From Candidatus Spongiisociaceae bacterium (GTDB lineage Bacteria; Actinomycetota; Acidimicrobiia; Spongiisociales; Spongiisociaceae), in contig OZ253564.1 in NCBI GenBank assembly GCA_965262915.1, positions 1,632,001-1,696,000 of the forward strand: a DNA stretch of 64,000 nucleotides, written 5' to 3'. Of this stretch, positions 29,506 through 58,062 are shown piece by piece; the first letter of the stretch is position 1; each line of letters begins with the position of its first letter. A model generated the notes under the pieces. The model saw only the letters and a program-made list of their open reading frames with translations. It made no database searches and was not told the DNA's origin. A program made the translations under genes and the position numbers.

Positions 29506-29579
29506 GGGCCCGTAGCTCAAGTGGTCAGAGCAGCGGACTCATAATCCGTTGGTTGCAGGTTCGAGTCCTGCCGGGCCCA
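29506..29579 (+). tRNA. tRNA with CAT anticodon, most likely tRNA-Ile2 (lysidine type); CCA not encoded
   Basis: GGGCCCG/CGGGCCC acceptor stem, TAGCTCA...TGG D arm, GCGGA-CTCATAA-TCCGT anticodon arm, GGTTCGAGTCC T loop; resembles ileX-type tRNAs. Confidence 0.93.
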
Positions 29580-29793
29580 CAGCGGGGTCTTCGCGTGTTA
29601 TGGGCTGTTGAGTTCGCGGGTTAGGGGTGTTGGTGGGGGTTCTGGCCTGTTTCAGGGGTGTTCGGGTGTGTTTGGCCGGGGTGTGGGGGTGTGTGGCTGT
29701 GGTTACGGGTGGTGCTGGCCGCGACGGTCGGTTTCTGGACGCGGTTGATTGGACGGGTGGGTTCCCGTCGAAGAGGAGCGGTGGGGGGTTGGT

Positions 29794-31596
29794 TTATGGG
29801 GGTGCTCGGGTGGTTGTGGGGCTGGTGGGGTGCGGGCCTGGTTCGGCTGGTGGGGTGGTGTCGGGGGGTGTGTGGCCGGGATGGTCCGGGGTGGTGGGGT
29901 TGCGGTTCTTGCGTCGGCTGCCTCGTCCGGTTTGTTTGAGGTTGTGGATGACGGCAGCGGCGAGCGCGGCGAGTGTGTGGGCGCCTAGGCCGAACACGCG
30001 GCAGGATGCTCTGTTGAAGCTGCCGTCGTTTTTGATCATGCCGTTGACGCCTTCGACGGGGTTGCGGCCGGCGTAGTCGGTTGCCCACTTCGTGGTGCCG
30101 TAGGCGTTGCGCTGGTGGTTGTCGAGCTGGTCGACGCCGAGGGTGATCATGCCGTCGCAGCAGGATTCCCTGTCGGCGACGGCGGTGACGGGCAGGGGGC
30201 TGCGGCGCTTGCGGCGGTTGGCCCGGTTGGTGTTGTAGGTTCGGGCTGTGCTTTTGACTTTGCCTGCGCATTGGGGGCACATGATCTTCTTCCGCCCGTC
30301 GGGGAAGCGTCCGATGACTACCCATGCGTATTTGGCTCGTTCGTCGAACCATTTTTGGCGGTCGGTTCCGGTCAGCCCGTCGGATGGGCGGAGTAGGTGT
30401 TTTGGTGTCCATTCGACGAGAAAGGTGCCGCAGTTCACATAGAGGGGGGTGTTGTCTGTGCCTGCGGTGATGAGCTTGACGCCTTCCTGTCTGTCTTTGG
30501 CCTGGTTCATTACGATCTCCCAGCCGTGTTCACGTAGGGGCCGGACGAAGGTCGTTTTCTTCGCGGTGTAGTGCTGGTCGGCTTTCACGACATCGACGCG
30601 GGGTGCTAGCTGTTTCGCTTTGGTGGCTACCTGATATCCGATGGGTCCGACGTGTTGGTCGGCGGATGCGAGGACCATCGCGACGATGTATGGGGGGACA
30701 TATTCGAGGCGTTTGCCCCGGCTGATGGTGCGGGTAGCGACAGCAGGATGCAACCAATAGCCATTGAAGTATTCGGATTGTTGACTCTGCTTCGGGCTGC
30801 GGCGGCCGATGCCGGCTGCCTTGTCCTTTGTGTGCTGGACGTTGCCGTTGGGTTTCAGCACCGTGTCGTCGGGTATGCGGCCGGCTCTGATTTCGTCCTG
30901 GCGGGTGAAGTCGGTGGTACGCGCCCAGGTTGGGTAGTCGGTCGCGTCGATGCTGATCTCGATGACCTTGCGGGCGACCCATTTGGGGATCGAGGGTGCC
31001 AGGAAGCGGTCGACCATCCACTGCAGGTCGATGTGAGTGCCGTCAGGGGTATCGGCTCCGTCTTCGAGGAGGCTCTCCAACCGTTTGCTCTGGCGCCAGA
31101 CCATGTTGTAGGAGAGCAGGGAGCGGCCGGTGTCGGGGTCTAGCAGGCCCCATTCGATAGCGACCGCGGCGTCGAGGCCAGCCAGGACCGCGCAGTGCAC
31201 GGTTCGCATGTATCTGCCTTGTAGTTTGGTGGCGAGGAGCATGGCGGCGAGGAGCATCTGGGTGGTCAGAACGGGCTGTTCCCCCGGATGGTCCCGCAGT
31301 ACTTTGTCGATGTGGCGGACTACGCCGGTGCGGGCTACGTACGCATACATCCGACGGGCTTGGGGAGCGGTCGTGATTATCGGCTCGCTGGGTTCGATGC
31401 CTTCCTCGTCGGTGTCTGCACAGACGTCGGTGTCCAGGTAGGTGCCGGGGTCGGTGTCGACGTCGGGGACGGAGCTGGGGTAGTCCGCGGGCAGCGTCCG
31501 CAAGGAGTTCAGCTCATACAGCCGTGCCGGGTCGGGCAGGCCCCGCCTGGTGAAAAGCCGGCGGAGTCGGCGGGCAGCACACGACTTGCTGATCAT
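29794..31596 (-). CDS. DDE transposase, IS4/IS5-superfamily-like, with Cys-rich insertion domain
   Basis: ISIDATD (D1), VKADQHY (D2), YAGRNPVEGVNGMIK = Y-x2-R-x3-E-x6-K; CPQC and CC between D2 and E. Confidence 0.8.
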   Translation of the reverse strand: MISKSCAARRLRRLFTRRGLPDPARLYELNSLRTLPADYPSSVPDVDTDPGTYLDTDVCADTDEEGIEPSEPIITTAPQARRMYAYVARTGVVRHIDKVLRDHPGEQPVLTTQMLLAAMLLATKLQGRYMRTVHCAVLAGLDAAVAIEWGLLDPDTGRSLLSYNMVWRQSKRLESLLEDGADTPDGTHIDLQWMVDRFLAPSIPKWVARKVIEISIDATDYPTWARTTDFTRQDEIRAGRIPDDTVLKPNGNVQHTKDKAAGIGRRSPKQSQQSEYFNGYWLHPAVATRTISRGKRLEYVPPYIVAMVLASADQHVGPIGYQVATKAKQLAPRVDVVKADQHYTAKKTTFVRPLREHGWEIVMNQAKDRQEGVKLITAGTDNTPLYVNCGTFLVEWTPKHLLRPSDGLTGTDRQKWFDERAKYAWVVIGRFPDGRKKIMCPQCAGKVKSTARTYNTNRANRRKRRSPLPVTAVADRESCCDGMITLGVDQLDNHQRNAYGTTKWATDYAGRNPVEGVNGMIKNDGSFNRASCRVFGLGAHTLAALAAAVIHNLKQTGRGSRRKNRNPTTPDHPGHTPPDTTPPAEPGPHPTSPTTTRAPP

Positions 31597-32546
31597 GGCC
31601 CCAACCCCTGGGCGGCGGCATCTACCGGATCCAGGTCGGCAGCGGAAGCGGCTAGCAGCGCGGTGAGGGTGTCACCCGACAGCGGACCTGCTATCCGGCG
31701 CAGCGCGGACAGAGAAGTACCCGCGTGTAGGTGGGCGACCAGCCAGGTGGAACGGGCACGCCGCACCGACAGGGTACGGCCACTGATCCCAACCTGCCGG
31801 CACAACATGTACACCGCTGTGCGATGCGTCGCCGTAACGAACCGTCCGCCGTCGGCCAGCTCCACAGCTTCCCGTACGAGGGATGTGTAATCGTGGCGTA
31901 TCGGCACCACACGCGGATGCCCGCCCCCGACCCGTACACCGAGCCGGTCGTTTCCGAGGTTGACCAGATCGCCGGTCACAGCCGACGCGATGACCGGGCT
32001 GAGCAGACCCGCCCCGAGAGTCGCGGCGACCACCCACCGACGTCCCGCAGGCTCCACCCGGGCCGGCAGGCAAGCCGACAGCCGGAACACTGCCTCGTCC
32101 CCCGGCGTATACGGACTGGACGGGGGTATGCGCCCGATCTGTTCCCCAACAGGGGCCTCGGCCCAGCCGTCCGGGAACACAGCCCGCCCCACTTGGCGTA
32201 GAAGCCACCTGGTGTGGCGCCGCCACATCAGACTCTTATGAGCGTTCACTTCGAACGCCCAGTACTCCACGTTGGCGGGACACAACATCCGGACATCCAC
32301 CGTCGCCGACACCCCGAATATCCAGGCACCGAACTCCGACGTAACCCGAAGCATCTCGCGGACCATCGAAACGCTATCCGGATGAACAGCCGCAACCCAA
32401 CAACGAACCGTCGGCCACACCAGGGATTCGAGGTCGCCGCTGCCATCCGGATAGGTGTCCCACACCGGTGGGCGCCACAACGACAGCCTCGCCAACACTC
32501 CCGCGGACAGATCCGCAGACAGCGGAAGGCTGGTGAAGCAGGTCAC
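31593..32546 (-). CDS. Tyrosine-recombinase-fold protein, catalytically degenerate
   Basis: LGAGLLSP...TGDL, VRVGG.HPRVVPI and LSVRRARSTWLVAHLHAGTSLSALRRIAG align to integrase boxes, but R, H, H and Y are absent; 4-nt overlap with the transposase start. Confidence 0.7.
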   Translation of the reverse strand: MTCFTSLPLSADLSAGVLARLSLWRPPVWDTYPDGSGDLESLVWPTVRCWVAAVHPDSVSMVREMLRVTSEFGAWIFGVSATVDVRMLCPANVEYWAFEVNAHKSLMWRRHTRWLLRQVGRAVFPDGWAEAPVGEQIGRIPPSSPYTPGDEAVFRLSACLPARVEPAGRRWVVAATLGAGLLSPVIASAVTGDLVNLGNDRLGVRVGGGHPRVVPIRHDYTSLVREAVELADGGRFVTATHRTAVYMLCRQVGISGRTLSVRRARSTWLVAHLHAGTSLSALRRIAGPLSGDTLTALLAASAADLDPVDAAAQGLGP

Positions 32547-57225: not shown

Positions 57226-57484
57226 TAATCCCGCAAACCACCACCCGTAGCCCGCCGCCACCCCGTCAGGTCGCAGCACAGGAGCCCTTTCATCCCAGAC
57301 CCATCATCGCGGAGCGGCTCCTCTCCCTCCGTCAAACCCCCACCAAATGAATTATCGGGGGTTGGAAATGGCCGAGTGGTTTATCGGCGAGATGAAGTCG
57401 ATCTAGCCGACCCCGGACCCTTTCGACCATCGGCGCGGGATAGCGGTACGGTGTTCTACGCAGCGCAGGCGGCGAGCCCTACAC

Positions 57485-57632
57485 GCACCATGTCCGGCCG
57501 GCGCATCATCTGGTCAGCAGCTACGACGCCATAGCCGTTGAATGGTTGAACGTGGCGGGGATGCTCCGCACCAATATGTTTTCGCACAGGATGGCTTCGC
57601 AGCGTTGGGCCGCCTATGACCACATATTGGAA
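57485..57632 (+). pseudogene. TnpB (IS200/IS605) RuvC-II fragment
   Basis: HLVSSYDAIAVEWLNVAGMLR...W.....LE resembles the TnpB IAVEDLNV.GM motif. Confidence 0.55.
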
Positions 57633-58062
57633 CGCGGGGAGTGGCCGAGTCGGCGAACGAACGGTGAGCAGGGGCTCGGGATACGGGCGAAACACCGATT
57701 CGCAGCGACTGGGAAGAGGAGACAGATTCCGGCTGAGGAGGAGACAGGCTCCTCGGACCCCTACCATTACCCCTGGTCAGGGGTGGTCGCGAAGACCCCA
57801 CAGCCATCTCAGCCAGCCGCCGTGCCGTGCGCCGCCGCCGTCGGCGCCGCCCACATCACCACACCACAGCAACGCCGCCACACATGTCACACGACACGAC
57901 GACGGTGGAGTCTTCCGCGTCTTCGGCCTCGGGCCGGGCCAACACGGATCGCGTAGGACCGTACTCAACCAACCGCTGGGGGCAGCGACTCCGCTAGGAT
58001 AGTTACGTAGCGTTGCGGATATACTCGATGTATTACGGGGTGCGTATTACCATCCGCACGTA

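Follow-up and report, generated by a model that had tools for sequence, protein, structure and literature searches.

Head-to-tail DDE transposon units behind a tRNA gene, with 5-bp spacers that probably mark separate insertions and jointly moved blocks

Introduction

A row of mobile units lies directly behind a tRNA(CAT) gene in a 64,000-nucleotide stretch of DNA from Candidatus Spongiisociaceae bacterium (here called the window; C1:1632001-1696000 of the genome named G000, 5.06 Mb, 64% G+C). The units are separated by 5-bp spacers, some of which repeat the 5 bp at the tRNA end and some of which have another sequence. This raises the question of how the array was assembled and what its spacers record. 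An earlier reading of the window, made from the DNA letters without database searches (here named the sequence-only reading), had taken the deviating spacers for fossil target duplications from other sites and had divided the array into two blocks, A and B, each led by a unit that encodes a transposase. In this study, we re-examined the window together with the same locus of G001, a near-identical strain with an independent assembly, using a comparison set of six genomes and one metagenome contig. The spacer observation itself was confirmed, and its interpretation was supported in part. We consider it probable that the array is a train of one transposon family, in which local spacers stem from separate insertions and foreign spacers from blocks of units that moved together from other targets.

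The array behind tRNA(CAT)

The units and spacers of the array, with the evidence for each in parentheses, are as follows.

29506..29579, plus strand: tRNA(CAT) gene, insertion target (ARAGORN 29506-29580; acceptor pairing read from sequence)
29579..29583: spacer ACAGC, tRNA-proximal copy of the local target duplication (sequence)
29584..43267, plus strand: unit 1, 13.7 kb, autonomous (ends, open reading frames [ORFs])
43268..43272: spacer ACGCA, foreign to this locus (sequence)
43273..44691, plus strand: unit 2, 1.4 kb, nonautonomous (DUF4160 ORF inside 43486-44358)
44692..44696: spacer ACAGC, local, boundary of block A (sequence and G001 comparison)
44697..49663, plus strand: unit 3, 5.0 kb, autonomous (ends, ORFs, G001 comparison)
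49664..49668: spacer ACAGA, foreign, kept in G001 (sequence and G001 comparison)
49669..51154, plus strand: unit 4, 1.5 kb, nonautonomous (ends, G001 comparison)
51155..51159: spacer ACGCA, foreign; G001 has ACAGC after unit 4 (sequence and G001 comparison)
51160..54043, plus strand: unit 5a, left end of the GGGATGTTCGCC subtype, right end truncated at 54043
54044..55154, plus strand: unit 5b, remnant, right part of another unit
55155..57799, plus strand: unit 6, 2.6 kb, nonautonomous (G001 comparison)
57800..57804: spacer ACAGC, distal copy of the local duplication (following flank 100% identical to G001)

The head-to-tail array spans positions 29584 to 57799, and the same 12-bp inverted ends bound its units: each starts with GGGGTCTTCGCG and finishes with the reverse complement, and neighbors are spaced by exactly 5 bp. 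Exact left ends were found at 29584, 44697, 49669, and 55155, a copy with one mismatch at 43273, and a copy with three mismatches (the GGGATGTTCGCC subtype) at 51160; exact right ends finish at 43267, 44691, 49663, 51154, and 57799. Upon re-reading of the sequence, the spacers came in the order given before (ACAGC, ACGCA, ACAGC, ACAGA, ACGCA, ACAGC). The tRNA at the start of the array is labeled Met(CAT) by ARAGORN, and the duplicated 5 bp begin with its discriminator A (29579). The conserved parts of the unit ends measure 100 to 300 bp and are 80 to 99% identical between units.

Two details of the sequence-only reading had to be revised. The junction that it had called fused indeed lacks a spacer at 55154/55155, but the cause is a 25-bp deletion between GGGGT repeats, which took the tip of the right end together with an ACGCA spacer; both are intact in G001. 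Furthermore, the supposed fifth unit consists of two remnants (51160-54043 and 54044-55154), so the array holds seven unit remnants instead of six units. Units 2 and 4 retain the last 43 and 61 codons of a transposase gene beside their left ends (E values of 2e-8 and 1e-11), and unit 5a retains short transposase and partner relics. The nonautonomous units are deletion derivatives, and the presence of transposase-gene remains beside the left end supports a train made of one transposon family.

A second end subtype (left GGGATGTTCGCC, right GGTGGCGAACATCCC) shares arrays with the main subtype. Ends of the GGGATGTTCGCC subtype occur in the window at 51160-51171, at G000:C1:1596053-1598255, and at loci L044 and L052; in unit 5a, the left end of this subtype stands amid main-type neighbors.

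Target duplications at other loci

Alignment of the transposase yielded 22 loci, all of which belong to Acidimicrobiia, Actinomycetota, or unclassified metagenome-assembled genomes, several with sponge-type bin names. In G000, the same ends also occur behind tRNA-Glu(TTC), with the duplication ACGGC, and behind tRNA-Arg(CCT), where a 26-kb array has GCTCC at both outer ends. An element behind a tRNA-like 3' end without an ARAGORN call has ACCAA on both sides, and a three-unit array on the minus strand has ACTTA at both outer ends. The claim that insertion at the window locus duplicates ACAGC holds: in G000 and G001 alike, one copy adjoins the tRNA and another closes the array. Elsewhere, the 5 bp of the respective site are duplicated (ACGAA four times in a tRNA-Leu array of G003, GCTCC at tRNA-Arg, and ACCAA, AAGGT, or TCAGT at other loci). 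The outer spacers match in all five arrays that were seen end to end (the window, G001, tRNA-Arg and ACTTA in G000, and tRNA-Leu in G003). Identical flanking 5-mers were also found for five of nine single units (ACCAA, AAGGT, TCAGT, GATAG, and ATGGT), three of them at sites without a tRNA.

The duplication begins at the discriminator for tRNA(CAT), Glu(TTC), Arg(CCT), and Leu(CAG). Among the 22 loci and further stretches of five of those genomes, left ends lie 5 bp past the acceptor stem of tRNA(CAT), Leu(CAG), Glu(TTC), and Val(TAC). Depending on the genome, the 5-mer behind tRNA(CAT) is ACAGC, ACACT, ACCAC, or ACAAC, and that behind tRNA-Leu is ACGAC or ACGAA. Since the 5-mer always equals the local sequence, at non-tRNA sites as well, it is a target duplication of the transposase type and not the core of a recombinase site. 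Two of the targets classed as non-tRNA (L031 and L038) showed, upon inspection of the flanks by eye, the T-arm-like sequences GGTCGATTCC and GGTCCGAGTCC at the offset seen in tRNAs, so that the T-arm box, as DNA, is a candidate for the element recognized. A class-wide search for the pattern T-arm, 15 nt, and a related left end gave hits in 20 of 401 genomes. Among five distant relatives (30 to 40% identity), three lie about 200 to 350 nt from the 3' end of a tRNA or tmRNA, with the same geometry.

Elements behind sequences that resemble tRNA 3' ends and have no ARAGORN call were seen at G000:C1:476276-479044 and at positions ~9055-9079 (oriented) of L015, where a full tRNA(CAT) lies 5 kb upstream of the tRNA-end-like sequence. 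Another element, on integrating, may have displaced 3' copies that now serve as such targets. The tRNA-Arg array closes with GCTCC, and from G000:C1:4181769 onward this is followed by GGGGTGTTAGCC. Similar left ends (GGGGTGTTAGCG) stand behind tRNA-like ends in other families of the class; the array may go on with units of a more distant subfamily.

Block structure in a near-identical strain

The locus in G001 has the same flanks, with 616/616 nt upstream and 2696/2696 nt downstream identical to the window. Its array starts with tRNA ACAGC (unit 3) ACAGA (unit 4) ACAGC (X) ACGGC (Y) and continues after Y with ACAGC (Z) ACGCA (V) ACGCA (5b) ACGCA (unit 6) ACAGC. Unit 3 of the window matches the tRNA-proximal unit of G001 at 99.94% (3123 nt) and 99.84% (1848 nt), unit 4 is 99.93% and unit 6 (the distal unit in G001) 99.55% identical, and the part of unit 5b at 54408-55154 is 99.7% identical to a 1.0-kb unit. 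The junction of unit 3, ACAGA, and unit 4, taken with 700 nt on each side, is 99.86% identical in both strains (1405 nt).

Units 1 and 2 are missing from G001, exactly between two copies of ACAGC. Block A of the sequence-only reading is borne out by this clean presence or absence, with ACAGC outside and ACGCA inside: two separate insertions would have left ACAGC and not ACGCA between the units, and units 1 and 2 therefore arrived or left as one piece. Block B (units 3 to 6) did not hold up as one block. Since units 3 and 4, with ACAGA between them, are bounded by ACAGC on their own in G001, where the remainder lies in an ACGCA-spaced block, block B is composite, and the junction of unit 4, ACGCA, and unit 5a in the window must stem from a later deletion or end-to-end recombination that removed an ACAGC boundary. 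The pattern of a compound transposon was thus found for units 1 and 2 and, in G001, for units 3 and 4 (ACAGC outside, ACAGA inside).

In addition, the ACAGC-bounded blocks begin with transposase units. Both transposase units of the window follow ACAGC, and the three ACAGC-bounded blocks of G001 begin with its three transposase-bearing units (unit 3, X with a split gene, and Z), a 1-in-56 arrangement if three leaders were randomly placed among the eight G001 units. All three pairs of transposase and partner genes in G000 lead a block that is bounded by the local duplication. Such leading units are not universal, as the tRNA-Glu array weighed below shows.

Contigs from short-read runs bear on the age of unit 1. 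In contigs of two runs from other studies, units 2 and 3 were present at a depth of 14 to 29 with almost none of the unit 1 cargo, and two runs of one further sample covered this cargo fully, consistent with a unit 1 that came to the tRNA-proximal position recently and is variably present. Among the contigs of the four runs, none bridges a unit junction, and neither an empty-site nor a circle junction for units 1 and 2 was found; the listed contig joints could be assigned to related ends in other arrays or to a unit 3 variant of the G001 type.

This G001 form of unit 3 has about 200 extra bases (array positions 3745-3946) relative to 47816-47819 of the window. They hold a 33-nt motif that also occurs in the window at 32858-32890 and 54824-54856, and the form was found in contigs of runs X1 and X18. 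G002 contains a 94% copy of unit 2 with ACCCG and then a degenerate left end behind it; this copy has no bearing on joint movement.

Transposase and partner protein

The two autonomous units of the window encode the following pairs.

29794-31596, minus strand: unit 1 transposase
31593-32546, minus strand: unit 1 partner, 4-nt overlap with the transposase start
44907-46697, minus strand: unit 3 transposase
46694-47647, minus strand: unit 3 partner

The transposases (600 and 596 aa) are 72% identical to each other. Similarity to curated models is weak, confined to the C-terminal part, and far below the cut-offs of DDE_Tnp_1_6 and IS1182: the Pfam DDE_Tnp_1_6 cut-off of 25.1 bits was not reached (22.9 bits), nor was the 270-bit cut-off of IS1182 (NCBIfam NF033551; 25.8 bits, residues 440-555 only). 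Among 18 aligned relatives, D217, D340, E515, Y508, and R511 are invariant, and the motif YAGRNPVEGVNGMIK corresponds to the Y-(2)-R-(3)-E-(6)-K signature of IS4-type transposases as defined in the relevant part of PMC2266710. D217/D340/E515 and the YREK residues are the putative catalytic residues, and the enzyme, which also carries a CPQC...CC insertion, is predicted from its sequence to work like an IS4-type transposase. The system as a whole is a site-specific, cargo-carrying DDE transposon.

A word-indexed search returned 26 relatives of the transposase, none of them named, and a full profile search returned 1321 cluster representatives at E values up to 0.001 (269 at up to 1e-30). When 13 distant relatives were sampled, they scored 22 to 26 bits or nothing against the IS1182 model; none reaches an NCBIfam cut-off, and one reaches that of Pfam DDE_Tnp_1. 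A profile search of PDB sequences with the transposase gave no match. The transposon family is large and almost wholly unannotated, and no published description of it was found in the open-access literature searched.

The partner (317 aa) is 90% identical between units 1 and 3. Its gene lies upstream of the transposase gene, overlaps the start of the latter by 4 nt, and accompanies it, translationally coupled, in all three G000 copies. No Pfam family, integrases included, matched the partner even at an E value of 1. Its neighbors in a protein language model include integrase clusters, and one distant relative carries the source annotation "integrase." A single-sequence AlphaFold model (predicted local distance difference test [pLDDT] score of 38) was unusable. 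An alignment-based model with a pLDDT of 56.8, confident only in the N-terminal helical domain, was compared with the PDB using Foldseek, and the top ten rows were XerH, XerA, and Cre (E values of 0.008 to 0.07, low TM scores); the partner profile matched one XerC-like chain among PDB sequences (E value of 0.57). The segment resembling box I reads GAGLL in the window copies and GAGLR in the relative P0053. An alignment of 18 partner sequences showed no conserved C-terminal tyrosine, and the catalytic set R..H-x-x-R..Y is incomplete. With moderate support from these comparisons, the partner is probably a degenerate and inactive DNA-binding protein of the tyrosine recombinase type, which by analogy may select the tRNA target. 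A complex prediction for transposase and partner scored 0.00 and carries no weight either way.

Origin of the foreign spacers

Of 24 inner junctions that were counted, 21 begin with AC, as tRNA ends do in G000. The local duplication is known for 23 of them, and 11 of these spacers are local and 12 foreign. Several foreign spacers have a counterpart elsewhere: ACGGC is the tRNA-Glu duplication of G000, ACCAG the empty tRNA-Glu flank of G002, and ACGAC the tRNA-Leu duplication of G002, and a same-subtype right end in G002 is followed by TCAGA. As about 15 5-mers are known out of 64 possible ones that begin with AC, such matches are only moderately informative. ACGCA was found at two junctions of the window and three of G001 and once each in G003 and a related metagenome contig.

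The sequence-only reading had suggested looking for ACGCA or ACAGA behind the same tRNA in relatives. The answer was mixed: G003 has ACGCA behind this tRNA, apparently as an import, and ACAGA was found behind no true tRNA in the six genomes. On the far side of the G003 element stands ACAAC, and the metagenome contig reads tRNA-ACAAC-A-ACGCA-left end, its array closing with ACAAC and the same flank; ACGCA therefore looks like an import in G003 as well. The string in the contig looks like the footprint of an excised leader unit. An apparent tRNA followed by ACAGA in G002 (L026) was rejected as a chance match, being no tRNA by ARAGORN and having no element ends. In a metagenome scan, the exact junction pattern gave no matches; a looser pattern gave 14 loci, of which 12 are unrelated palindromes and two are copies of one true array (L052 and L059).

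Strings of 5-mers between ends were also observed in L042 (G005:C2:4364001-4384000) at ~8790-8800 and 10687-10718, on the reverse strand of L059 at ~4484-4495, and from G000:C1:4168575 onward. Examples are tRNA-Glu ACAGC-T-ACAGC before a left end; ACAGC ACAGC ACAGC ACACG... after a right end; tRNA ACAAC-A-ACGCA before a left end; and ACGGC ACGGC ACGAC... after a right end. They look like footprints of excised units after rejoining of the break. Ku is encoded in G000.

Assembly of the array and alternative explanations

In the reading that we favor, two units are autonomous, and five are deletion derivatives with cargo of the defense or toxin-antitoxin type. The 600-aa enzyme is a DDE transposase of the IS4/IS5/IS1182 kind, coupled to the 317-aa degenerate tyrosine-recombinase-like protein, and would make a 5-bp staggered cut starting at the discriminator base of a tRNA or tRNA-like gene. 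Because the cut would lie at this base, the tRNA and the target would be regenerated, and further insertions could stack. Each spacer would be a retained copy of a target duplication. Local ACAGC would mark a separate insertion; ACGCA and ACAGA would have been made at other 5-bp targets and imported as neighboring units moved together, the left end of a leader unit being paired with the right end of a unit farther along. Such use of a distal right end would account for block movement, and the transposase may prefer the end that adjoins its own gene. Later decay would include small junction deletions and recombination between the conserved ends, which removes units.

It is hardly credible that the deviating spacers arose from ACAGC by point mutation or sequencing error. 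ACAGA does differ from it by one letter, but ACGCA differs at three positions and recurs in the window, G001, G003, and the metagenome contig, and the recurrence of the junction of unit 3, ACAGA, and unit 4 in the independent G001 assembly argues against read errors. Nor is there much in favor of the junction being a lox-like site (12-bp arms and a 5-bp core) at which circles are integrated by the tyrosine-recombinase-like partner, and we regard this as very unlikely. In its favor are the perfect 12+5+12 palindrome-like layout of the junction, the resemblance of the partner to tyrosine recombinases, and the fact that tRNA 3' ends are classical integrase targets. Yet the partner is without the conserved C-terminal tyrosine and has a leucine where its relative has the box I arginine, the supposed core varies by locus and equals the local sequence, including AAGGT and TCAGT at non-tRNA sites, and leader units always hold an intact transposase with the DDE and YREK residues. 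Mutation or error and cassette integration are thus both poorly supported.

Two other processes remain live as alternatives or contributors, each of them improbable as the whole explanation. If units moved singly and sometimes carried along 5 bp of the old site, a foreign spacer would be the last address of its unit. The metagenome contig, with ACAAC again at the far end of its array, agrees with such carry-over, as does G003, which has ACGCA next to the tRNA and ACAAC distally; a G003 unit at a non-tRNA site has TAGGA behind it and, in front, the ACGAA that is duplicated at tRNA-Leu in the same genome. However, the string ACAAC-A-ACGCA reads equally well as the footprint of an excised leader, the five evenly flanked single units and the ACGAA array show clean identical duplications, and carry-over gives no reason for a transposase unit to stand at the head of every ACAGC-bounded block. 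About as doubtful is shuffling by homologous exchange at the conserved ends, within or between arrays or with imported DNA, by which units would be swapped along with their spacers. The 80 to 99% identity of the ends would permit it, and the junction of unit 4, ACGCA, and unit 5a, where G001 has ACAGC, requires either an exchange of this kind or a deletion. Pointing the same way are lone ends separated by 230 kb, arrays whose outer spacers differ, and a CCCAC microhomology between the tRNA end and a right end plus spacer. Against this, recombination confined to one array can remove inner spacers but never bring in a foreign one, crossovers between arrays at separate loci would leave chromosomal rearrangements, and units 1 and 2 form a clean insertion between ACAGC copies in otherwise 100% identical flanks. 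Recombination is probably a secondary process here.

Several observations weigh against joint movement of blocks as we propose it. The absence of units 1 and 2 from G001 could reflect precise loss and not gain in G000. At tRNA-Glu in G000, the array includes two units spaced by TCAGA and bounded by ACGGC copies, with no transposase. Unequal flanks in four of the nine single units (ACGCA/ACAAC, ACGAA/TAGGA, TGTGT/CTGTG, and ACGAC/CCGAC) call for some process besides clean compound transposition. The sequence-only reading had proposed a search for its blocks intact elsewhere; when the 24 inner junctions were compared together with 700 nt to either side, a match across the junction was seen only for the orthologous unit 3/4 junction of G000 and G001, and no block was found at two independent loci in the six genomes and the metagenome contig. 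As these two strains are near-identical, the blocks they share are inherited and not independent. Fossil duplications from elsewhere agree with the inner ACAGA of the G001 blocks and with the matches of foreign spacers at other sites; in the six genomes, no native tRNA site with ACGCA or ACAGA was found, and the ACGCA behind tRNA(CAT) in G003 has ACAAC on its far side. Since no short-read contig bridges a junction, the unit order depends on the two assemblies. The fold assignment of the partner is weak (pLDDT of 56.8, Foldseek E value no better than 0.008). Finally, the chronological record that the array had been proposed to keep is eroded by the truncated right end, the fused junction, and the differing middle of the array in G000 and G001.

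Relation to known systems

The IS4, IS5, and IS1182 groups share the DDE triad with YREK (signature of PMC2266710), terminal inverted repeats, and a fixed-length duplication with the transposon described here. The same source associates the full YREK with repeats of about 10 bp. IS4 proper has a duplication of about 10 bp and a single transposase gene, whereas here a full YREK occurs with 5 bp and a second gene. Further differences from the IS4 group are the size of 600 aa, the obligatory second gene, the targeting of tRNA ends, and the cargo-carrying trains.

The presumed role of the partner has a parallel in TnsF of Tn6022-like Tn7 elements, described in the pertinent passages of Faure et al. 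2023 (PMC10293859) as an inactivated tyrosine-recombinase-type protein that was experimentally shown to select the target. By description, the DDE transposon of the window would likewise be paired with a degenerate protein of this type; in that account, Tn6022 targets comM, whereas the element here targets a tRNA end. No Pfam or NCBIfam match to TnsA, TnsB, TnsC, or TniQ was found among the ORFs scanned in units 1 and 3.

In composite transposons and mobile insertion cassettes (see PMC4337579), passenger genes lie within the inverted ends of an autonomous element and are mobilized by its transposase. Larger mobile segments can arise there when other ends are paired, as appears to happen here. 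Unlike such cassettes, the units of the window are all in direct orientation, exactly 5 bp apart, and stacked at one tRNA, with earlier duplications kept inside. Tycheposons of Prochlorococcus reportedly rely on tyrosine or serine recombinases and partial tRNA repeats, in contrast to the DDE transposase, 5-bp duplications, and inverted ends seen here. In their summary description (10.1101/2020.12.28.424599), they are likewise cargo elements in tandem at tRNA genes that form variable islands. Dada DNA transposons, which are eukaryotic, are of the DDE type and, in the overview given in PMC3706591, strictly target multicopy small-RNA genes, including tRNA genes. Their transposase is presumably unrelated to the one of the window, and they are not known to form trains or to keep fossil spacers.

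A wider picture, which we offer tentatively as somewhat short of probable, is that of a DDE family that homes to the tRNA discriminator by means of a dead tyrosine integrase as selector, whose leader unit exports any number of downstream passengers. Islands of defense and toxin-antitoxin genes would then be built stepwise, and the 5-bp spacers together with the chains of excision 5-mers would form a ledger across strains and species of sponge symbionts. If this were true, a bacterial cut-and-paste family would occupy tRNA gene ends, a niche usually held by integrases, and the dead integrase, perhaps borrowed, would be a second and independent case of the TnsF principle outside Tn7. Defense islands would grow and move as modules, by stacking at a self-regenerating target followed by export through a distal end, and inner spacers would be a rare internal record of transfer, usable to trace gene flow among uncultured sponge symbionts. 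Since the transposase family is large (1321 clusters) and almost wholly unannotated, this behavior may be widespread.

Cargo genes and further element ends

The remaining ORFs of the array, apart from the DUF4160 ORF of unit 2 given above, are as follows.

33717-36914, plus strand: unit 1, HKD+Snf2 helicase
36863-40474, plus strand: unit 1, type IIG methylase/restriction-like protein
40973-42967, minus strand: unit 1, 664-aa ORF
47899-48519: unit 3, DUF2442 ORF
50372-51007, minus strand: unit 4, DUF433 ORF
53281-53949, minus strand: unit 5a, DUF433 ORF
54109-54399: unit 5b, nucleotidyltransferase (MNT-like) ORF
54651-55091: unit 5b, second ORF
55213-56157: unit 6, AbiEii-like ORF
56686-57225: unit 6, DUF6036 ORF

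The cargo of unit 1 (33717-42967) is a probable defense module carried by the transposon. Its helicase with the HKD (PLD) and Snf2 domains matches the PADLOC model C3a139 (E value of 3e-96), and the type IIG restriction-methylase-like protein was recognized with an E value of 1e-134; the 664-aa ORF had no family match. Outside unit 1, the cargo consists of small gene pairs of the DUF4160, DUF2442, DUF433, nucleotidyltransferase, and AbiEii types.

Lone ends were noted in G000, namely, a left and a right end 230 kb apart (C1:537249 and C1:766925) and degenerate right ends at 3624645 and 4026885, which may be traces of rearrangement between arrays. Directly after right ends, ATATAGGGTAT... stands at L009, L029, and L035 and TAGGAGGGTCCTAAAACGAAT... 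at L031, L032, and L036 (G002 to G004). These repeats may be the ends of a different element family that nests with the one described here.

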